A stretch of DNA of 64,000 bases from Escherichia coli (lineage in GTDB: Bacteria; Pseudomonadota; Gammaproteobacteria; Enterobacterales; Enterobacteriaceae). Both the position numbers and the translations under genes were made by a program. The notes beneath the pieces are model-generated. The model worked only from the letters and a program-made list of their open reading frames with translations. It was not told the DNA's origin and ran no database searches. Positions 44,805-53,768 of the stretch are shown here, piece by piece. The stretch is from assembly GCF_003334785.1 (NCBI RefSeq), contig NZ_QOWV01000005.1, one strand, 5' to 3'. The stretch's first letter is position 1. Each line of letters opens with the position of its first letter.

Positions 44805-46796
44805 ATGTCCTCACGTAAAGAGCTTGCCAATGCTATTCGTGCGCTGAGCATGGACGCAGTACAGAAAGCCAAATCCGGTCACCCGGGTGCCCCTATGGGT
44901 ATGGCTGACATTGCCGAAGTCCTGTGGCGTGATTTCCTGAAACACAACCCGCAGAATCCGTCCTGGGCTGACCGTGACCGCTTCGTGCTGTCCAACGGCC
45001 ACGGCTCCATGCTGATCTACAGCCTGCTGCACCTCACCGGTTACGATCTGCCGATGGAAGAACTGAAAAACTTCCGTCAGCTGCACTCTAAAACTCCGGG
45101 TCACCCGGAAGTGGGTTACACCGCTGGTGTGGAAACCACCACCGGTCCGCTGGGTCAGGGTATTGCCAACGCAGTCGGTATGGCGATTGCAGAAAAAACG
45201 CTGGCGGCGCAGTTTAACCGTCCGGGCCACGACATTGTCGACCACTACACCTACGCCTTCATGGGCGACGGCTGCATGATGGAAGGCATCTCCCACGAAG
45301 TTTGCTCTCTGGCGGGTACGCTGAAGCTGGGTAAACTGATTGCATTCTACGATGACAACGGTATTTCTATCGATGGTCACGTTGAAGGCTGGTTCACCGA
45401 CGACACCGCAATGCGTTTCGAAGCTTACGGCTGGCACGTTATTCGCGACATCGACGGTCATGACGCGGCATCTATCAAACGCGCAGTAGAAGAAGCGCGC
45501 GCAGTGACTGACAAACCTTCCCTGCTGATGTGCAAAACCATCATCGGTTTCGGTTCCCCGAACAAAGCCGGTACCCACGACTCCCACGGTGCGCCGCTGG
45601 GCGACGCTGAAATTGCCCTGACCCGCGAACAACTGGGCTGGAAATATGCGCCGTTCGAAATCCCGTCTGAAATCTATGCTCAGTGGGATGCGAAAGAAGC
45701 AGGCCAGGCGAAAGAATCCGCATGGAACGAGAAATTCGCTGCTTACGCGAAAGCTTATCCGCAGGAAGCCGCTGAATTTACCCGCCGTATGAAAGGCGAA
45801 ATGCCGTCTGACTTCGACGCTAAAGCGAAAGAGTTCATCGCTAAACTGCAGGCTAATCCGGCGAAAATCGCCAGCCGTAAAGCGTCTCAGAATGCTATCG
45901 AAGCGTTCGGTCCGCTGTTGCCGGAATTCCTCGGCGGTTCTGCTGACCTGGCGCCGTCTAACCTGACCCTGTGGTCTGGTTCTAAAGCAATCAACGAAGA
46001 TGCTGCGGGTAACTACATCCACTACGGTGTTCGCGAGTTCGGTATGACCGCGATTGCTAACGGTATCTCCCTGCACGGTGGCTTCCTGCCGTACACCTCC
46101 ACCTTCCTGATGTTCGTGGAATACGCACGTAACGCCGTACGTATGGCTGCGCTGATGAAACAGCGTCAGGTGATGGTTTACACCCACGACTCCATCGGTC
46201 TGGGCGAAGACGGCCCGACTCACCAGCCGGTTGAGCAGGTCGCTTCTCTGCGCGTAACCCCGAACATGTCTACATGGCGTCCGTGTGACCAGGTTGAATC
46301 CGCGGTCGCGTGGAAATACGGTGTTGAGCGTCAGGACGGCCCGACCGCACTGATCCTCTCCCGTCAGAACCTGGCGCAGCAGGAACGAACTGAAGAGCAA
46401 CTGGCAAACATCGCGCGCGGTGGTTATGTGCTGAAAGACTGCGCCGGTCAGCCGGAACTGATTTTCATCGCTACCGGTTCAGAAGTTGAACTGGCTGTTG
46501 CTGCCTACGAAAAACTGACTGCCGAAGGCGTGAAAGCGCGCGTGGTGTCCATGCCGTCTACCGACGCATTTGACAAGCAGGATGCTGCTTACCGTGAATC
46601 CGTACTGCCGAAAGCGGTTACTGCACGCGTTGCTGTAGAAGCGGGTATTGCTGACTACTGGTACAAGTATGTTGGCCTGAACGGTGCTATCGTCGGTATG
46701 ACCACCTTCGGTGAATCTGCTCCGGCAGAGCTGCTGTTTGAAGAGTTCGGCTTCACTGTTGATAACGTTGTTGCGAAAGCAAAAGAACTGCTGTAA
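44805..46796 (+). CDS. tktA: transketolase 1
   Basis: [41 protein letters not shown]...; TPP motif 'GDGCMMEG'; start trimmed. Confidence 0.95.
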
Positions 46797-46810
46797 TTAG
46801 CATTTCGGGT

Positions 46811-46838
46811 AAAAAGGTCGCTTCGGCGACCTTTTTTA
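46811..46838 (+). terminator. tktA rho-independent terminator
   Basis: aaaaaggtcgc-ttcg-gcgacctttttt. Confidence 0.6.
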
Positions 46839-47109
46839 TTACCTTGATATGTCCGTTTGCGGACAAGCAATAGATAAGGCGTGTTGTAGATCACAAATAT
46901 TTATATGCAATAAATATCAATTATGTAATATGCATCACGATATGCGTATTGACATTTGTTGTTATATCTATAACTCAATGTTATATAAGAAATTAATAAT
47001 TCACTGTTTTCAAAACACCGGTTTCCCTGCTCAATTGCTTTCATTAAACCGCACGAGTATTTTATTTTTACCGCCGGACGGTACCCTAAAAATAAAATAA
47101 GGATAATTT

Positions 47110-47553
47110 ATGCGGCTTAGTGATTATTTTCCAGAATCATCAATCTCAGTTATACATTCAGCAAAAGATTGGCAGGAAGCTATCGATTTCTCGATGGTAT
47201 CATTGCTGGATAAAAACTATATCAGCGAGAATTACATTCAGGCAATTAAAGATTCCACCATTAACAATGGCCCTTATTATATTCTCGCACCAGGCGTGGC
47301 AATGCCTCATGCGCGACCGGAATGTGGGGCGCTTAAAACCGGGATGTCTTTGACATTACTTGAACAAGGTGTTTATTTTCCGGGGAATGACGAACCAATT
47401 AAATTACTCATCGGACTCTCTGCTGCCGATGCCGATTCGCACATTGGCGCTATTCAGGCGTTAAGTGAATTACTGTGCGAAGAAGAAATACTCGAACAAC
47501 TCTTAACAGCATCATCAGAAAAACAATTAGCGGACATTATCAGCCGCGGATAA
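47110..47553 (+). CDS. cmtB: PTS mannitol-family EIIA component (cryptic)
   Basis: 147 aa; phosphohistidine region 'GVAMPHAR'. Confidence 0.85.
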   Translation: MRLSDYFPESSISVIHSAKDWQEAIDFSMVSLLDKNYISENYIQAIKDSTINNGPYYILAPGVAMPHARPECGALKTGMSLTLLEQGVYFPGNDEPIKLLIGLSAADADSHIGAIQALSELLCEEEILEQLLTASSEKQLADIISRG

Positions 47554-47580
47554 TTACTCTCTCCTCTACAGGATAATATT

Positions 47581-48969
47581 ATGGAAAACAAGTCTGCTCG
47601 TGCAAAGGTCCAGGCTTTTGGGGGCTTTTTGACTGCAATGGTCATCCCCAATATTGGTGCTTTTATTGCCTGGGGTTTTATTACTGCGTTATTTATTCCC
47701 ACCGGTTGGCTGCCTAACGAACATTTCGCCAAAATTGTCGGCCCGATGATTACCTATTTATTGCCCGTGATGATTGGTTCTACAGGTGGTCATCTGGTCG
47801 GCGGTAAACGCGGGGCGGTCATGGGCGGAATAGGTACTATTGGTGTGATCGTTGGCGCAGAGATCCCGATGTTCCTTGGCTCAATGATCATGGGGCCGCT
47901 CGGTGGGTTGGTCATAAAATATGTCGATAAGGCACTGGAAAAACGCATACCTGCCGGTTTTGAGATGGTTATCAATAACTTCTCATTAGGTATCGCGGGG
48001 ATGCTCCTTTGTCTGCTGGGTTTTGAAGTTATCGGCCCGGCGGTGTTAATTGCCAATACTTTCGTCAAAGAGTGTATTGAGGCGCTGGTACATGCGGGTT
48101 ATCTGCCATTGTTGTCAGTCATCAATGAACCGGCGAAAGTGCTTTTCCTCAATAATGCGATCGATCAGGGCGTCTATTATCCGCTGGGAATGCAACAGGC
48201 TTCGGTTAACGGTAAATCCATCTTCTTTATGGTGGCCTCTAACCCAGGTCCGGGCCTGGGGCTGCTGCTGGCGTTTACCTTGTTTGGTAAAGGGATGAGT
48301 AAACGTTCTGCGCCCGGGGCGATGATTATTCACTTCCTCGGTGGGATCCACGAACTGTATTTCCCGTATGTGCTGATGAAGCCGCTGACCATTATTGCCA
48401 TGATTGCGGGCGGTATGTCTGGCACCTGGATGTTTAACTTACTGGACGGTGGTCTGGTGGCTGGCCCAAGTCCGGGGTCTATCTTTGCTTACCTGGCACT
48501 GACGCCGAAAGGCTCGTTCCTGGCGACAATTGCCGGTGTTACGGTAGGTACCCTGGTGTCCTTTGCTATTACTTCGCTGATACTGAAGATGGAAAAAACG
48601 GTGGAAACGGAGAGCGAAGATGAGTTTGCTCAGTCAGCCAATGCGGTTAAGGCGATGAAACAAGAGGGTGCATTCTCGTTAAGCAGGGTTAAGCGTATCG
48701 CCTTTGTTTGCGATGCGGGGATGGGCTCCAGTGCGATGGGCGCGACCACCTTCCGTAAACGCCTGGAAAAAGCGGGGCTGGCAATTGAAGTAAAACATTA
48801 CGCCATAGAAAACGTGCCTGCGGATGCGGATATCGTCGTTACTCATGCCAGTCTGGAAGGGCGCGTGAAACGTGTGACGGATAAACCACTGATATTGATT
48901 AATAACTATATTGGCGATCCAAAACTCGACACTTTATTTAATCAATTAACCGCCGAACATAAACACTGA
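47581..48969 (+). CDS. cmtA: PTS mannitol-family EIICB component (cryptic)
   Basis: 462 aa membrane protein with C-terminal EIIB 'FVCDAGMGSSAMGA'. Confidence 0.85.
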   Translation: MENKSARAKVQAFGGFLTAMVIPNIGAFIAWGFITALFIPTGWLPNEHFAKIVGPMITYLLPVMIGSTGGHLVGGKRGAVMGGIGTIGVIVGAEIPMFLGSMIMGPLGGLVIKYVDKALEKRIPAGFEMVINNFSLGIAGMLLCLLGFEVIGPAVLIANTFVKECIEALVHAGYLPLLSVINEPAKVLFLNNAIDQGVYYPLGMQQASVNGKSIFFMVASNPGPGLGLLLAFTLFGKGMSKRSAPGAMIIHFLGGIHELYFPYVLMKPLTIIAMIAGGMSGTWMFNLLDGGLVAGPSPGSIFAYLALTPKGSFLATIAGVTVGTLVSFAITSLILKMEKTVETESEDEFAQSANAVKAMKQEGAFSLSRVKRIAFVCDAGMGSSAMGATTFRKRLEKAGLAIEVKHYAIENVPADADIVVTHASLEGRVKRVTDKPLILINNYIGDPKLDTLFNQLTAEHKH

Positions 48970-48983
48970 TTACAGAGGTAAAA

Positions 48984-50261
48984 ATGAAAACCAAAGTTGC
49001 TGCTATTTATGGCAAGCGGGATGTCCGTCTGCGCGTATTTGAACTGCCAGAAATTACCGATAATGAATTACTGGTGAGTGTAATTTCTGACAGCGTCTGT
49101 TTATCGACCTGGAAAGCGGCGTTACTCGGTAGTGAACATAAACGCGTACCCGACGATTTAGAAAATCATCCGGTCATTACCGGGCATGAATGTGCCGGGG
49201 TTATTGTCGAAGTGGGTAAAAATCTCACTGGCAAATATAAAAAAGGCCAGCGTTTTGTATTGCAACCGGCGATGGGGTTACCAAGCGGATATTCAGCGGG
49301 CTACAGCTACGAATATTTTGGCGGCAATGCCACTTATATGATTATTCCCGAAATCGCCATTAATTTGGGCTGCGTATTACCGTATCACGGCTCTTATTTT
49401 GCTGCGGCGTCGCTGGCAGAGCCTATGTGCTGCATTATTGGTGCTTATCATGCCAATTATCACACCACGCAATATGTTTATGAGCATCGCATGGGCGTCA
49501 AACCTGGCGGCAATATTGCACTGCTGGCGTGTGCAGGTCCGATGGGCATTGGCGCTATCGATTACGCCATTAACGGCGGCATACAACCGTCGCGGGTGGT
49601 GGTGGTCGATATCGACGACAAACGTCTGGCGCAGGTACAGAAGCTGCTGCCGGTGGAACTGGCGGCCAGTAAAGGCATTGAGCTGGTGTATGTGAATACC
49701 AAAGGGATGAGCGATCCTGTCCAGATGCTGCGGGCGCTGACAGGAGATGCCGGGTTCGATGACATTTTTGTTTATGCGGCGGTGCCTGCTGTCGTTGAGA
49801 TGGCTGATGAATTACTGGCGGAAGATGGCTGTCTGAACTTCTTTGCCGGGCCGACGGATAAAAACTTCAAAGTGCCGTTTAATTTCTACAACGTCCATTA
49901 CAACAGCACGCACGTCGTCGGTACATCTGGCGGTTCAACGGACGACATGAAAGAGGCGATTGCCCTTAGCGCCACTGGGCAGTTACAGCCGTCGTTTATG
50001 GTGACCCATATCGGTGGCCTGGATGCGTTGCCAGAAACCGTGCTCAATCTGCCGGATATCCCTGGCGGTAAAAAACTCATTTATAACGGCGTGACCATGC
50101 CGCTCACTGCCATTGCCGATTTTGCCGAAAAAGGCAAAACCGATCCGCTGTTTAAAGAGTTGGCGCGGCTGGTTGAGGAAACGCACGGCATCTGGAATGA
50201 ACAGGCCGAGAAATATCTGCTGGCACAATTTGGCGTTGATATCGGGGAGGCCGCGCAATGA
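48984..50261 (+). CDS. yggP: putative zinc-type sugar-alcohol dehydrogenase YggP
   Basis: 425 aa; MDR/ADH-like 'GHECAGVIVEVG'. Confidence 0.8.
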   Translation: MKTKVAAIYGKRDVRLRVFELPEITDNELLVSVISDSVCLSTWKAALLGSEHKRVPDDLENHPVITGHECAGVIVEVGKNLTGKYKKGQRFVLQPAMGLPSGYSAGYSYEYFGGNATYMIIPEIAINLGCVLPYHGSYFAAASLAEPMCCIIGAYHANYHTTQYVYEHRMGVKPGGNIALLACAGPMGIGAIDYAINGGIQPSRVVVVDIDDKRLAQVQKLLPVELAASKGIELVYVNTKGMSDPVQMLRALTGDAGFDDIFVYAAVPAVVEMADELLAEDGCLNFFAGPTDKNFKVPFNFYNVHYNSTHVVGTSGGSTDDMKEAIALSATGQLQPSFMVTHIGGLDALPETVLNLPDIPGGKKLIYNGVTMPLTAIADFAEKGKTDPLFKELARLVEETHGIWNEQAEKYLLAQFGVDIGEAAQ

Positions 50262-51223
50262 TGTCCCTGGCGTGGCCATTATTTCGCGTTACGGAACAGG
50301 CAGCGTTGGCTGCCTGGCCGCAAACCGGATGTGGCGACAAAAATAAAATTGATGGCCTGGCGGTCACCGCGATGCGCCAGGCATTAAACGACGTCGCTTT
50401 TCGTGGACGAGTGGTTATCGGCGAAGGAGAAATTGACCATGCGCCGATGCTGTGGATTGGCGAAGAGGTGGGCAAAGGCGATGGGCCAGAAGTCGATATC
50501 GCGGTTGATCCCATTGAAGGCACGCGGATGGTGGCGATGGGGCAGAGCAATGCGCTGGCGGTCATGGCTTTCGCCCCTCGAGATAGCCTGTTACATGCGC
50601 CCGATATGTATATGAAAAAGCTGGTTGTTAATCGGCTGGCGGCGGGCGCGATTGATCTGTCTTTGCCTCTGACGGACAACCTGCGCAACGTGGCGAAAGC
50701 GTTAGGCAAACCGCTGGATAAGCTGCGCATGGTTACGCTGGATAAACCGCGCCTGAGTGCCGCGATTGAGGAAGCAACACAGCTGGGCGTGAAGGTTTTT
50801 GCCCTGCCGGATGGCGATGTCGCCGCCAGCGTGCTGACCTGCTGGCAGGATAATCCTTACGATGTGATGTACACCATCGGCGGTGCGCCAGAAGGCGTGA
50901 TTTCTGCCTGTGCCGTTAAAGCATTAGGCGGGGATATGCAGGCCGAGCTGATTGACTTTTGCCAGGCTAAAGGGGATTACACGGAAAATCGGCAGATTGC
51001 AGAGCAGGAGCGCAAGCGTTGCAAGGCAATGGGCGTTGACGTTAACCGTGTGTACTCGCTCGATGAACTGGTGAGGGGGAACGATATCCTCTTTAGCGCT
51101 ACGGGCGTGACGGGCGGTGAGCTGGTGAACGGTATCCAACAGACGGCGAATGGGGTGCGGACGCAGACATTACTGATCGGCGGCGCGGACCAAACGTGTA
51201 ATATAATAGACTCCCTGCATTGA
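50258..51223 (+). CDS. yggF: class II fructose-1,6-bisphosphatase (GlpX paralogue) YggF
   Basis: 321 aa; overlaps yggP stop by 4 nt. Confidence 0.85.
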   Translation: MMSLAWPLFRVTEQAALAAWPQTGCGDKNKIDGLAVTAMRQALNDVAFRGRVVIGEGEIDHAPMLWIGEEVGKGDGPEVDIAVDPIEGTRMVAMGQSNALAVMAFAPRDSLLHAPDMYMKKLVVNRLAAGAIDLSLPLTDNLRNVAKALGKPLDKLRMVTLDKPRLSAAIEEATQLGVKVFALPDGDVAASVLTCWQDNPYDVMYTIGGAPEGVISACAVKALGGDMQAELIDFCQAKGDYTENRQIAEQERKRCKAMGVDVNRVYSLDELVRGNDILFSATGVTGGELVNGIQQTANGVRTQTLLIGGADQTCNIIDSLH

Positions 51224-51244
51224 TGGTGATCTATCGGAAGACCA

Positions 51245-51754
51245 ATGGCGACGCTGACAGAAGATGATGTGCTTGAGCAACTGGATGCACAGGACAATTT
51301 ATTTTCATTTATGAAAACTGCGCATACCATTTTGCTCCAGGGGATACGCCAGTTTCTGCCGTCGCTGTTTGTCGATAACGATGAAGAGATCGTGGAATAT
51401 GCAGTGAAGCCGTTACTCGCCCAAAGCGGCCCGCTTGACGATATTGATGTTGCACTGCGTTTGATTTATGCGTTGGGGAAAATGGATAAATGGTTGTACG
51501 CCGATATCACGCATTTTTCCCAGTTCTGGCATTACCTGAACGAACAGGATGAAACGCCCGGATTTGCCGATGACATGACCTGGGATTTTATCAGCAACGT
51601 CAATAGCATAACCCGCAATGCGATGCTCTATGACGCGTTAAAAGCGATGAAGTTCGCTGATTTCTCCGTCTGGTCAGAGGCGCGTTTTAGCGGAATGGTC
51701 AAAACGGCGCTGACGCTGGCAGTAACGACCACCTTAAAGGAATTAACGCCGTGA
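51245..51754 (+). CDS. yggD: MtlR-like protein YggD (FumE)
   Basis: 169 aa; synteny. Confidence 0.75.
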   Translation: MATLTEDDVLEQLDAQDNLFSFMKTAHTILLQGIRQFLPSLFVDNDEEIVEYAVKPLLAQSGPLDDIDVALRLIYALGKMDKWLYADITHFSQFWHYLNEQDETPGFADDMTWDFISNVNSITRNAMLYDALKAMKFADFSVWSEARFSGMVKTALTLAVTTTLKELTP

Positions 51755-52464
51755 AAATTGAATTAACGGTGAATGGGCTGAAGATACAGGCACAGTACCA
51801 GAACGAAGAGATTGAAAATGTACATAAACCGTTGCTGCACATGTTGGCGGCCTTACAGACGGTAAATCCGCAGCGGCGTACGGTGGTTTTTCTTTGCGCT
51901 CCGCCGGGGACGGGTAAATCAACCCTAACCACCTTCTGGGAATATCTCGCGCAACAAGACCCGGAACTGCCCGCTATTCAGACGCTCCCGATGGATGGTT
52001 TTCACCATTACAATAGCTGGCTGGATGCGCATCAATTGCGCCCCTTCAAAGGCGCACCAGAGACATTTGACGTTGCGAAACTGACGGAAAATCTGCGCCA
52101 GGTCGTGGAAGGGGATTGTACGTGGCCGCAGTACGATCGACAAAAGCATGATCCTGTTGAAGATGCGTTGCACGTTACCGCACCACTCGTCATCGTCGAA
52201 GGAAACTGGTTGTTACTGGATGATGAAAAGTGGCTGGAGTTGGCATCTTTCTGCGATTTTTCTATTTTTATTCATGCACCTGCTCAAATTCTGCGGGAGC
52301 GCTTGATTAGTCGTAAAATTGCGGGAGGATTAACGCGGCAAGTAGCCGAAGCATTTTATGCCCGCACCGATGGCCCCAATGTCGAGCGTGTGCTGATGAA
52401 TAGCCGTCAGGCCAATCTGATAGTAGAGATGACTGAAGAAGGCCGGTATCACTTCACAAGCTGA
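51751..52464 (+). CDS. yggC: P-loop kinase-like protein YggC
   Basis: 237 aa; Walker A 'APPGTGKST'; overlaps yggD stop by 4 nt. Confidence 0.75.
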   Translation: MKIELTVNGLKIQAQYQNEEIENVHKPLLHMLAALQTVNPQRRTVVFLCAPPGTGKSTLTTFWEYLAQQDPELPAIQTLPMDGFHHYNSWLDAHQLRPFKGAPETFDVAKLTENLRQVVEGDCTWPQYDRQKHDPVEDALHVTAPLVIVEGNWLLLDDEKWLELASFCDFSIFIHAPAQILRERLISRKIAGGLTRQVAEAFYARTDGPNVERVLMNSRQANLIVEMTEEGRYHFTS

Positions 52465-52748
52465 CAATTTATTCCAGTTATTGTAGGGTTATTATTACGC
52501 CAGCCTGGAATAAAGCTTCCCACAAAAGGGGATAAAAGTGTGATGTGAGTCAGATAAATGTCTTCTTCGGCTGGACAAACATTCCTTTTATTCCACGTTT
52601 CGCTTATCCTAGCTGAAGCGTTTCAGTCGATTAAATGTTCGACAATTAACCAATCAGTCGCAGTTTGCGACAGGTAAGGTTTCCCCGGACGATTTGCTGG
52701 ATTACTCTGTCTGGCAAATTTGCTCAGGGAAAACCTTGCAGGAGATCT

Positions 52749-53768
52749 ATGACCGTACGCGTAGCGATAAATGGCTTCGGTCGCATCGGGCGTAATGTGG
52801 TTCGTGCTTTGTATGAATCCGGACGCCGGGCGGAAATTACCGTGGTGGCAATCAACGAACTGGCGGATGCTGCGGGCATGGCGCATTTGTTGAAATATGA
52901 CACCAGCCATGGCCGTTTTGCATGGGAAGTACGACAGGAACGCGATCAACTTTTTGTTGGTGATGACGCCATCCGCGTATTGCATGAACGTTCACTGCAA
53001 TCGCTCCCCTGGCGTGAACTTGGCGTTGATGTAGTCCTCGACTGCACCGGCGTATATGGCTCCCGCGAGCATGGCGAAGCGCATATTGCCGCCGGGGCCA
53101 AAAAAGTGCTCTTTTCACATCCTGGCAGTAACGATCTCGACGCGACCGTTGTTTACGGCGTCAATCAGGATCAACTTCGTGCGGAACACCGCATCGTTTC
53201 TAACGCTTCCTGTACCACGAATTGCATAATTCCCGTCATCAAATTGTTAGATGATGCGTACGGTATTGAGTCCGGCACTGTGACCACAATTCACTCCGCC
53301 ATGCACGATCAACAGGTTATTGATGCATACCATCCTGACCTGCGTCGCACCCGGGCAGCCAGCCAGTCGATCATTCCGGTCGATACTAAACTGGCCGCCG
53401 GTATCACACGATTTTTTCCGCAATTTAACGATCGCTTTGAAGCGATTGCGGTACGTGTGCCAACCATAAATGTGACGGCAATCGATTTAAGCGTGACGGT
53501 GAAGAAACCTGTAAAAGCCAATGAAGTCAACCTGTTGCTGCAAAAAGCAGCACAAGGTGCATTTCATGGTATAGTTGACTATACGGAATTGCCGTTGGTC
53601 TCTGTAGATTTTAACCACGATCCGCACAGTGCCATTGTCGATGGCACCCAAACCCGGGTCAGTGGCGCACACCTGATCAAAACGTTGGTCTGGTGCGATA
53701 ACGAATGGGGCTTTGCTAACCGAATGCTCGACACGACGTTAGCTATGGCTACTGTTGCTTTCAGGTAA
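52749..53768 (+). CDS. epd: erythrose-4-phosphate dehydrogenase
   Basis: [27 protein letters not shown]...; GAPDH-family 'ASCTTNC'; start trimmed. Confidence 0.95.

Follow-up and report, generated by a model that had tools for sequence, protein, structure and literature searches.

Comparative sequence analysis of the cmtBA-yggPFDC cluster of Escherichia coli suggests a possible PTS-dependent route for a mannitol-like sugar alcohol

Background

Several described systems approach the cmtBA-yggPFDC cluster of Escherichia coli from different sides. The mtlADR operon of E. coli resembles it in its mannitol-subfamily EII, its EIIA function, its MtlR-fold putative regulator and its CRP-dependent promoter. 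The gat operon leads from a polyol PTS, through a Zn medium-chain polyol-phosphate dehydrogenase and a kinase, to a ketose bisphosphate and a class II aldolase, and a similar chain of reactions is put forward here for the cmt genes. In the sor operon, SorE is a full-length homologue of YggP and shares with it the residues at the Zn-ligand positions and many other invariant residues, and glpFKX likewise places a class II fructose-1,6-bisphosphatase (FBPase) gene in an operon (a predicted one in the case of yggF) whose substrate enters metabolism at or below fructose-1,6-bisphosphate (FBP). The kinase YggC can be compared with FrcK, with the 'fructose transport system kinase' of PDB 3c8u and with the PanK-GLYK-UK-PRK fold group. 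To our knowledge, no member of the FrcK/YggC subfamily has a defined substrate. The only studied relative of YggC, FrcK of Sinorhizobium meliloti, may have a regulatory role (PMC10433430).

The cmtBA-yggPFDC cluster is itself an ordinary, long-annotated locus of E. coli K-12. The cAMP-CRP complex binds and activates the cmtB promoter (PMC3105977), and yggC was earlier predicted to encode a sugar or polyol kinase (PMC3223725). The statement in the original prediction that the substrate of the cluster is undefined still stands: a full-text search found no paper assigning one, the subscription papers Sprenger 1993, Brown 2009, Sevin 2017 and Tan 2009 lying outside that search. The searched literature holds no report of a D-mannitol uptake or phosphorylation assay for CmtAB.

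Results

The analysed window is a stretch of 64,000 nucleotides of E. coli DNA, in which the cluster and its upstream surroundings comprise the following features.

44805..46796, + strand: tktA (transketolase), upstream neighbour (ORF and annotation)
46816..46837, + strand: intrinsic terminator of tktA, GGTCGC-TTCG-GCGACC followed by T6, visible in the sequence
46838..47109, + strand: cmtB control region, AT-rich, about 34% GC by composition profile
46880-46895 and 46924-46939: candidate CRP-like half-good sites (pattern search, 2 mismatches each)
47110-47553, + strand: cmtB, 147 aa (ORF list)
47581-48969, + strand: cmtA, 462 aa (ORF list)
48984-50261, + strand: yggP, 425 aa (ORF list)
50258-51223, + strand: yggF, 321 aa (ORF list)
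51245-51754, + strand: yggD (annotated fumE), 169 aa (ORF list)
51751-52464, + strand: yggC, 237 aa, GTG start (ORF list)

Positions 46800-52800 of the window are 100.0% identical to the corresponding stretch of E. coli K-12 MG1655, for which RefSeq lists the same six genes; the identities originally proposed for them hold. The block is separated by 313 nt from the upstream tktA stop codon and by 284 nt from epd downstream. The tktA terminator marks the upstream boundary of the cmtB-yggC unit, and the three Rfam matches obtained, all of them sub-threshold, fall on its hairpin. In the control region, CRP-like sites with two mismatches have to be read against a pattern search that found no excess of such sites over chance in the window. 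A junction script run on the ORFs gives successive spacings of 27, 14, -4, 21 and -4 nt from cmtB to yggC, and both of the predicted 4-nt overlaps are right: ATGA joins the yggP stop to the yggF start, and GTGA joins the yggD stop to the GTG start of yggC.

The transport components constitute an intact EIIA/EIICB pair of the mannitol subfamily. CmtB matches the EIIA-mannitol equivalog NCBIfam NF007358 with 326 bits (cutoff 192), and CmtA passes both MtlA IICB cutoffs (NF011663, 593 vs 589 bits; TIGR00851, 480 vs 468 bits) and is 52% identical to the bona fide MtlA of Rahnella. Motif searches located the phosphorylatable His67 of CmtB in GVAMPH and the EIIB Cys377 of CmtA in FVCDAGMGSS.

The original prediction had taken YggP for a zinc-type polyol dehydrogenase. 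The zinc part of that assignment is borne out, but YggP is better named a paralogue of a sugar-phosphate reductase, since it is 45-46% identical over 98% of its length to annotated SorE proteins (tblastn), which are located in genuine sor operons. Among the matches listed, dehydrogenases that are not of the SorE type reach at most 29% identity (tblastn), and YggP has no NCBIfam equivalog, its top match scoring 82 bits where 450 are required. In the alignment, C39, H68, E69 and E146 occupy the catalytic Zn ligand positions of medium-chain dehydrogenases and are invariant with SorE; a GPMG nucleotide loop and D209 are present as well. These features identify YggP as a Zn medium-chain dehydrogenase and a paralogue of the L-sorbose-1-phosphate reductase SorE. 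Residue D209, which is associated with NAD preference, is common to both proteins in the alignment and hence gives no sign of the direction of the reaction. At none of the loci examined does yggP belong to a sor-type operon; it always lies beside a mannitol-type EII and yggC.

Since SorE, the sole characterised relative of YggP, is a reductase, the cluster might operate in a sorbose-like, reductive sense. A ketose would be phosphorylated on C1 by the PTS, as in the fructose family, YggP would reduce it to a polyol phosphate, and a dehydrogenase encoded at another locus, such as MtlD or SrlD, would oxidise the latter. The MtlD-type genes that adjoin the cluster in Rahnella, [C.] innocuum and C. 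beijerinckii are in line with such a scheme. It is opposed by CmtA, which passes the cutoffs of mannitol and not fructose EII models, and it leaves the kinase and the bisphosphate enzymes without a place. Moreover, an ST131 strain loses the ability to grow on sorbose when sorE is deleted (PMC12817954). We infer that this strain carries yggP, because the block is found in all 5,426 of 5,426 complete E. coli genomes; YggP is then evidently no substitute for SorE in vivo, and its failure to rescue the mutant contributes to making the reductive scheme very unlikely.

YggF matches the glpX model TIGR00330 with 588 bits (cutoff 259) and can be aligned over its whole length with 1ni9, the structure of GlpX from E. 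coli (E = 5e-111), an alignment in which the metal and substrate stretches GEGEID, DPIEGT, DGDV and GGAPEG are kept. It is a class II (GlpX-type) fructose-1,6-bisphosphatase paralogue. In PMC8719807, FBPase activity of YggF in vitro is credited to Brown 2009, and the enzyme is reported to be less efficient than Fbp and GlpX. YggD corresponds to the Pfam family MtlR (PF05068, residues 5-167, E = 2e-53); a near-identical crystal structure (3c8g) and related MtlR structures (3brj, 6kcr) are available. Its renaming as fumarase E is ascribed to Sevin 2017, as cited in PMC8464067, and according to that citation the name goes back to a metabolomics screen carried out in vitro. Fumarase activity in vitro has been reported, and ChIP-exo detected no DNA binding (PMC8464067). 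Membership of a known fumarase family (class I FumA/B, class II FumC, FumD) was considered and rejected, as YggD matched only models and structures of the MtlR family. YggD is confined to the clusters of gamma-proteobacteria, and regulators of PRD/Mga/EIIA type, with the Gram-positive MtlR architecture, take its place in Bacillota and Fusobacteriota. On the basis of this gene context, YggD is probably a regulator of the cmtB-yggC unit.

YggC belongs to the P-loop kinase family PRK09270 (504 bits vs cutoff 402), its catalytic motifs are invariant, and every one of its closest folds is that of a small-molecule hydroxyl kinase. It is accordingly an intact P-loop small-molecule kinase of the FrcK/PanK/glycerate-kinase/uridine-kinase/PRK fold. 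The fold alone is shared with the PanK, Udk and PRK equivalogs, which were rejected as identities for YggC (TIGR00554, 51 vs 235 bits; Udk, 31-37 vs 180-220 bits). A Pfam search with E. coli YggC returned no significant match, PF00485 included. The kinase could conceivably act on the transporter or the regulator, in the manner of FrcK and together with YggD, instead of on a pathway intermediate, leaving the PTS and YggP as the whole of the catabolic chemistry. Fructose uptake is altered and mannitol transport de-repressed in frcK mutants of S. meliloti (PMC10433430), the 4-nt yggD/yggC overlap suggests translational coupling in E. coli, and the Bacillota clusters have the kinase gene placed between those for EIIA and EIICB. 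We regard a regulatory kinase as distinctly unlikely. FrcK itself differs from YggC in being partnered with an ABC transporter and not with a PTS.

The survey of the cluster covered 80 species-level loci and five further contexts, and a core of EIIA, EIICB, YggP and YggC was present in every complete locus. The E. coli gene order is repeated in 46 enterobacterial species-level loci, while the four-gene core extends over Enterobacterales, Vibrionaceae, Bacillota and Fusobacteriota, three phyla in all, with differing gene orders. EIIA, EIICB, YggP and YggC are thus inherited as one unit across these four groups, and the recurrence of the arrangement in the enterobacterial loci, together with that of the core in Vibrionaceae, Bacillota and Fusobacteriota, means that it is not due to chance. 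Around this core, yggF accompanies the cluster in 46-47 enteric loci and is absent from the clusters of Rahnella, Budvicia, Vibrionaceae and Bacillota; a YcdX-like PHP phosphatase is found in about 19 Vibrionaceae loci; a PRK14072-type PPi-PFK occurs in Ilyobacter, C. sporogenes, Lacrimispora/Hungatella and another Bacillota genome; and Anaerostipes carries a class II FBP aldolase gene 17 nt downstream of yggP. The lineage-specific additions all belong to the metabolism of ketose phosphates or bisphosphates.

Within E. coli, the six genes are co-directional and joined by short or overlapping junctions, and terminator-like sites inside the block are not in excess (6 vs 7.3 expected by chance). 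Five species comparisons yielded dN/dS values of 0.02-0.16 for the six genes (cmtB, 0.09-0.16; cmtA, 0.02-0.05; yggP, 0.03-0.06) and zero stop codons, from which it follows that the block is silent, not decaying. The lack of excess internal terminators, the linkage across phyla and the purifying selection on every gene together support the single catabolic unit originally predicted. They also bear on the notion of a silent remnant whose genes have become independent: YggF would be a spare FBPase for gluconeogenesis, YggD would serve as fumarase E, YggC would be a kinase of unrelated function and CmtAB a cryptic porter for mannitol. That notion can appeal to the historical 'cryptic' label, to the fact that no phenotype of the whole cluster is known, to the separate activities reported for YggF and YggD, and to the mild growth defect of a yggF deletion in glycerol fermentation (PMC8719807). 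However, it has to contend with the co-inheritance of the four-gene core in three phyla despite differing gene orders, with strong purifying selection on all six genes, with overlaps and tight spacing that point to co-translation, and with the dissimilarity of YggD to any fumarase family, and we consider it the least probable of the readings.

Transketolase genes adjoin the cluster or form part of it at five Vibrionaceae loci and in C. beijerinckii, Ilyobacter and Anaerotalea. The linkage occurs in at least four independent lineages, and the copies of Ilyobacter and V. mediterranei lie in the operon itself (in the latter across a 15-nt gap). The adjacency of tktA in Enterobacteriaceae may be simply inherited synteny, because tktA has its own terminator. 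The repeated linkage nevertheless invites a pentitol route, in which CmtAB would import a five-carbon polyol (D-arabitol, xylitol or ribitol) and YggP would convert its phosphate to xylulose-5-phosphate or ribulose-5-phosphate, which would pass straight to transketolase, with YggC and YggF in side roles such as salvaging or detoxifying misphosphorylated isomers. A transaldolase upstream of the cluster in V. hepatarius and an Rpe-family epimerase after yggP in C. beijerinckii agree with this route. Pentitol PTS operons with rpe, rpi and tkt-like genes are present in Listeria, and D-arabitol is accepted by E. coli MtlA. On the other hand, a pentitol substrate leaves the invariant kinase without a role; PPi-PFK, GlpX-type FBPase and class II FBP aldolase use C6/C7 bisphosphates and not pentulose phosphates, and the nearest relatives of the CmtA transporter are EIIs for mannitol, a C6 compound. 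A pentitol route is thus unlikely in our estimation.

Discussion

The reading that we tentatively put forward, and to which we give somewhat less than an even chance, is that cmtB to yggC constitute a single operon, dependent on cAMP-CRP, for PTS-dependent catabolism of a mannitol-like sugar alcohol. The polyol would be imported and phosphorylated on a terminal carbon by CmtAB, and YggP would oxidise the carbon beside the phosphate, in the reverse of the SorE reaction, to give a ketose-1-phosphate. YggC would then phosphorylate the other terminal hydroxyl, and the resulting ketose-1,6(7)-bisphosphate might either be split by an aldolase of class II or be dephosphorylated on C1 to a ketose-6(7)-phosphate destined for glycolysis or transketolase reactions. 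The C1 phosphatase would be YggF in enterics and a PHP phosphatase or a reversible PPi-PFK elsewhere, with YggD presumably acting as an MtlR-type regulator of the unit and not as a physiological fumarase. Given a regiochemistry like that of SorE, a kinase followed by a C1 phosphatase would not run in a futile cycle but form successive steps of a linear route. Because the accessory enzymes act on fructose or sedoheptulose bisphosphates, the evidence favours a product with six carbons (fructose-1-phosphate, converted to FBP) or seven (sedoheptulose-1-phosphate, converted to sedoheptulose bisphosphate and sedoheptulose-7-phosphate).

Several observations were counted against the proposed operon and its route. 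No K-12 growth phenotype tied to the cmt cluster has been reported, and the inability of YggP to replace SorE, the missing Pfam match of YggC and the negative ChIP-exo result for YggD were weighed in the same sense, as was the dispensability of the phosphatase. The last of these follows from its absence in Rahnella, Budvicia and most Bacillota, and implies that the phosphatase is not essential to the route.

The comparison with known systems places the cluster apart from each of them. With respect to mtlADR, cmt has its EIIA on a polypeptide of its own, YggP belongs to the Zn medium-chain enzymes of SorE type whereas MtlD is a long-chain dehydrogenase, and a P-loop kinase and FBPase II are added; in Rahnella mtl and cmt lie side by side, so that cmt is no substitute for mtl. 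The sor operon relies on a mannose-family EIIABCD, the SorC regulator and an SDR glucitol-6-phosphate dehydrogenase, with neither kinase nor phosphatase, and SorE differs from YggP in the loop at residues 94-112. As opposed to the situation in glpFKX, YggF is dispensable to the cmt cluster in several lineages. The closest analogue to the proposed cmt mechanism is the gat operon, although it employs another EII family, a GatD only about 25% identical to YggP, a kinase of PfkB/PfkA rather than P-loop type and an aldolase gene within the operon. The two systems are nonetheless distinct, since in Garciella a full gat-type operon adjoins a cmt-type cluster.

Gene organization and selection on the cmt cluster

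The original prediction of six co-directional genes with two 4-nt overlaps was borne out by an ORF list and a junction script. The window holds the following features:

46816-46837: hairpin-T6 terminator of tktA, 5' of the cluster
47110-47553, + strand: cmtB, EIIA of a mannitol-family PTS
47581-48969, + strand: cmtA, EIICB of the same PTS
48984-50261, + strand: yggP, SorE-type zinc dehydrogenase
49504-49520, + strand: sigma-54 -24/-12 motif CTGGCGGCAATATTGCA, inside yggP, over the codons for PGGNIAL
50258-51223, + strand: yggF, GlpX-type class II FBPase
51245-51754, + strand: yggD, MtlR-fold protein
51751-52464, + strand: yggC, P-loop kinase, GTG start

From cmtB to yggC, the junction script gives successive spacers of 27, 14, -4 (ATGA), 21 and -4 (GTGA) nt. 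A 270-nt stretch of about 34% GC separates the tktA terminator from cmtB, and 284 nt lie between yggC and the downstream epd-pgk-fbaA genes. Comparison with annotated orthologues agrees: the region 46800-52800 shares 100% identity with E. coli K-12 MG1655, whose RefSeq annotation has these six genes and no others there (labeling yggF 'glpX' and yggD 'fumE'), and the block was matched in all 5,426 of 5,426 complete E. coli genomes, with at least 80% coverage in 5,388. The cmt locus has long been known and annotated in E. coli K-12 as an orphan.

Two insertions flank the cluster in other strains and are absent from K-12. In many Escherichia strains, tktA and cmtB are separated by an additional stretch of some 1.2 kb that bears an SPFH/HflC-like gene on the opposite strand (at 5838-6755 of locus L004, from another E. 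coli; also in L005, L007 and L009). A 3.1-kb opposite-strand block between yggC and epd (12435-15513 of the Citrobacter locus L013, and some 11 other enteric loci) encodes two ABC ATPases, a transmembrane T-like protein and a small membrane protein, together resembling an ECF transporter, and a 141-aa protein. Being unrelated and on the opposite strand, both were rejected as parts of the cluster.

Set against E. albertii, Citrobacter, Salmonella, Raoultella and Buttiauxella, none of the six genes is truncated or interrupted by a stop codon, and in these same five comparisons their dN/dS values (0.02-0.16) resemble those of the flanking tktA and epd. These values reject a pseudogene or decay reading; as judged from its substitution pattern, the cluster is not a decaying 'cryptic' remnant. 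Among Escherichia loci (L004 and L005-L009), protein identity to the window is 86-95% for CmtB, 82-92% for YggC and 96-99% for the inner genes, and the lower values at both ends suggest edge recombination or relaxed constraint. In the Vibrio maritimus locus (L073), cmtA is undetectable and yggC is in two pieces; either the cluster is decaying there or the draft assembly is poor.

Comparative genomics of the cluster

A scan of 100,044 species (one genome per species) with a YggP alignment led to 117 confirmed loci. Eighty of them were retained, and tblastn with the E. coli proteins served to assign their architectures. The order cmtB-cmtA-yggP-yggF-yggD-yggC was found in 46 enterobacterial loci, and six more (Rahnella, Budvicia) keep this order without yggF. 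Some 18-19 Vibrionaceae loci have cmtB-cmtA-yggP-yggD-yggC followed by a YcdX-like PHP-family phosphoesterase that replaces yggF. The remaining pattern, in nine Bacillota loci devoid of yggD and of a phosphatase, is EIIA-yggC-EIICB-yggP adjoining a regulator of about 680 aa with HTH, Mga, PRD and EIIA domains; a search with a YggC alignment added five further contexts, every one with this Bacillota-type core. EIIA, EIICB, YggP and YggC are hence an invariant unit, which supports the original reading of a single catabolic unit, and the regulator and the phosphatase differ from lineage to lineage, these positions being filled by non-homologous proteins.

The neighbors of this core recur as well: they are ketose bisphosphate enzymes (class II FBPase, PPi-dependent phosphofructokinase, class II aldolase) and transketolase. 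In C. beijerinckii, the genes after yggP encode an Rpe-family epimerase, a 6-phospho-3-hexuloisomerase, an MtlD-type dehydrogenase and a transketolase; those in Ilyobacter, separated by short gaps, encode a PPi-phosphofructokinase of the PRK14072 type and a transketolase that is split. In Anaerostipes, 17 nt separate yggP from the start of a class II FBP aldolase; a PPi-phosphofructokinase lies immediately 5' of the regulator in C. sporogenes, Lacrimispora/Hungatella and another Bacillota genome; and ptsI and a split transketolase lie 3' of the cluster in Anaerotalea. Among the Vibrionaceae, transketolase is directly upstream of the cluster in four loci, V. hepatarius has a transaldolase, and in V. 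mediterranei 15 nt separate the PHP gene from the start of transketolase. Such transketolase or transaldolase genes occupy 2121-6634 of L059, 12369-14372 of L071, 11791-13572 of L089, 9707-11406 of L079 and 13775-14759 of L086. Since transketolase has been recruited beside or into the cluster in unrelated lineages, the adjacency of tktA and cmtB in E. coli may be more than synteny.

Other polyol systems are also found next to the cluster. In Rahnella inusitata, the yggF-less cluster is followed 1.4 kb downstream by a bona fide mtlA-mtlD-mtlR operon (12945-16822 of L048), so that two mannitol-type systems coexist there, and a convergent mtlD/EII operon adjoins the cluster of [C.] innocuum; these arrangements make it less likely that Cmt is simply a second mannitol system. 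In Garciella (18-3801 of L062), a galactitol-type operon encoding EIIC-GAT, a GatD-like dehydrogenase, a PfkB-type hexose-phosphate kinase and a GatY-type aldolase directly abuts the cmt-type cluster, and with this separate gat-type operon alongside, galactitol is an unlikely substrate.

Regulatory elements

An Rfam scan of 46500-53000 found no leader or riboswitch, its three matches being sub-threshold and all on the tktA terminator. Promoter and terminator scans gave nothing beyond shuffled expectation, and no sigma-70 promoter could be named from sequence alone. Two CRP-like sites, each with two mismatches, lie 5' of cmtB; the window holds no excess of matches of this quality (25, against 26.9 expected), and CRP control hence rests on the report that the cmtB promoter is bound and activated by cAMP-CRP, with yggF among the listed CRP targets (PMC3105977). 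In carbon-poor co-culture medium, yggF mRNA rises about 30-fold (PMC10972114). Elsewhere in the window, a one-mismatch CRP-like site, TGTGATGTGAGTCAGA, is located 5' of epd (52539-52554), and a perfect TGTGA-N6-TCACA at 38220-38235, far from the cluster. The sigma-54 motif inside yggP is identical to the intragenic site IS35 of Bonocora 2015 (PMC4591121), and of the 82 homologous loci only 8, most of them from Escherichia, keep its TGGC-N7-TTGC pattern, leading us to reject it as a conserved internal promoter. The cmtB gene and its upstream region (46838-47553) are markedly AT-rich, with GC of 0.34-0.42 against 0.48-0.57 in the other five genes; this composition would fit a candidate silenced promoter, e.g. 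one bound by H-NS.

Component proteins

CmtB passes the curated cutoff for mannitol EIIA and CmtA those for MtlA IICB, and they retain their phosphorylation residues (His67 and Cys377, respectively); a 2023 review continues to list the pair as mannitol-specific by annotation (PMC10305011). YggF scores 588 bits against TIGR00330, and its alignment with the GlpX structure 1ni9 runs from end to end and shows the catalytic stretches conserved. In the literature it counts as a minor FBPase, and its loss has mild consequences when glycerol is fermented (PMC8719807).

No equivalog model matched YggP. Among the tblastn matches listed (plasmid records), its sole close characterized relative is SorE, the L-sorbose-1-phosphate reductase (45% identity over 98% of the length), encoded in genuine sor operons of Klebsiella and Lactiplantibacillus; all dehydrogenases of other types listed are at most 29% identical. 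SorE works on the carbon adjoining the phosphate, converting L-sorbose-1-phosphate into glucitol-6-phosphate. Both proteins share Cys39, His68, Glu69, Glu146 and the nucleotide loop, and differ in the loop at residues 94-112; D209, considered as a clue to reaction direction through nucleotide preference, is uninformative, being present in SorE too. An ST131 strain deleted for sorE no longer grows on sorbose (PMC12817954), so that YggP evidently does not stand in for SorE in vivo. Equating the two enzymes is thus rejected by gene context and genetics alike.

YggC falls among the PRK09270 P-loop kinases; the E. coli protein has no significant Pfam match. The best structure superpositions of its confident AlphaFold model (pLDDT 93) are small-molecule hydroxyl kinases throughout, and its Walker A, DGFH, WPxYDRxxHD and EGNW motifs do not vary from one phylum to another. 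A 2011 study predicted a 'sugar/polyol kinase', with work 'in progress' (PMC3223725). The only relative studied, FrcK of S. meliloti, influences how fructose, mannitol and sorbitol are used, and 'the substrate ... is not readily apparent' (PMC10433430).

YggD carries a full-length MtlR domain (Pfam E = 2e-53); 3c8g is the crystal structure of a nearly identical protein, and the MtlR structures 3brj and 6kcr are related to it. It occurs in gamma-proteobacterial versions of the cluster only, being replaced elsewhere by a PRD regulator of Gram-positive MtlR architecture, and it matches no fumarase family. For these reasons, YggD is best read as a putative MtlR-type regulator of the cluster. On the other hand, a ChIP-exo study detected no DNA binding by YggD and its authors accepted the name 'fumarase E' (PMC8464067).

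A proposed ketose-bisphosphate pathway

No substrate assignment for the cluster was found in the literature searched, subscription papers being out of reach, and the original description of the substrate as undefined therefore stands. A PTS product is already phosphorylated, and a dedicated kinase is thus sensible only if it adds a second phosphate. YggP, running the SorE reaction backwards, would oxidize a polyol-1-phosphate to a ketose-1-phosphate. A second phosphate, added by YggC to the terminal hydroxyl at the far end of the chain, would make this a 1,6- or 1,7-bisphosphate. The 6- or 7-phosphate could then arise through a C1 phosphatase of the FBPase type or through a PPi-phosphofructokinase working reversibly; alternatively, a class II aldolase could split the bisphosphate. 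With the steps in this sequence, the kinase and YggF would form a linear path rather than a futile cycle. We regard this outline as tentative, with the balance tilting slightly against it. That it amounts to an undescribed PTS route, in which a SorE-like dehydrogenase yields a ketose-1-phosphate and a PanK/PRK-fold P-loop kinase a ketose bisphosphate, is a more doubtful proposition; if true, YggC would represent a new class of sugar-phosphate kinase and, as a corollary, 'fumarase E' would be a misnamed MtlR-type regulator.

The simplest option for the carbon skeleton is a C6 route from fructose-1-phosphate to FBP, which leaves the transketolase link without explanation. A pentitol route would account for transketolase but not for the kinase, the phosphofructokinase or the FBPase. 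In its boldest version, the proposed pathway would take a C7 polyol of the volemitol or perseitol type, via sedoheptulose-1-phosphate and sedoheptulose-1,7-bisphosphate, to S7P, or to DHAP and E4P. Such a route would explain the recurrent transketolase, PPi-phosphofructokinase, FBP/SBP aldolase and FBPase/SBPase-type phosphatase, and would account for every companion gene, but no precedent for it was found in the literature searched.

Few PTS-linked operons of E. coli K-12 that are complete still lack a substrate, and the cluster is one of them. All E. coli have it, as do common gut Clostridia ([C.] innocuum, Anaerostipes, C. sporogenes) and marine Vibrionaceae. Identifying the substrate would take several genes off the E. 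coli uncharacterized list, assign a function to the YggC/FrcK kinase subfamily and put the 'fumarase E' annotation to the test, and could possibly uncover a polyol from the diet or from algae on which gut and marine bacteria grow. Comparison across lineages reduces this 'unknown' to a short list of enzyme assays, and our analysis adds a cross-phylum functional core, the argument for YggD as a regulator and a testable model of a ketose-bisphosphate pathway that, in outline, would resemble the galactitol pathway.
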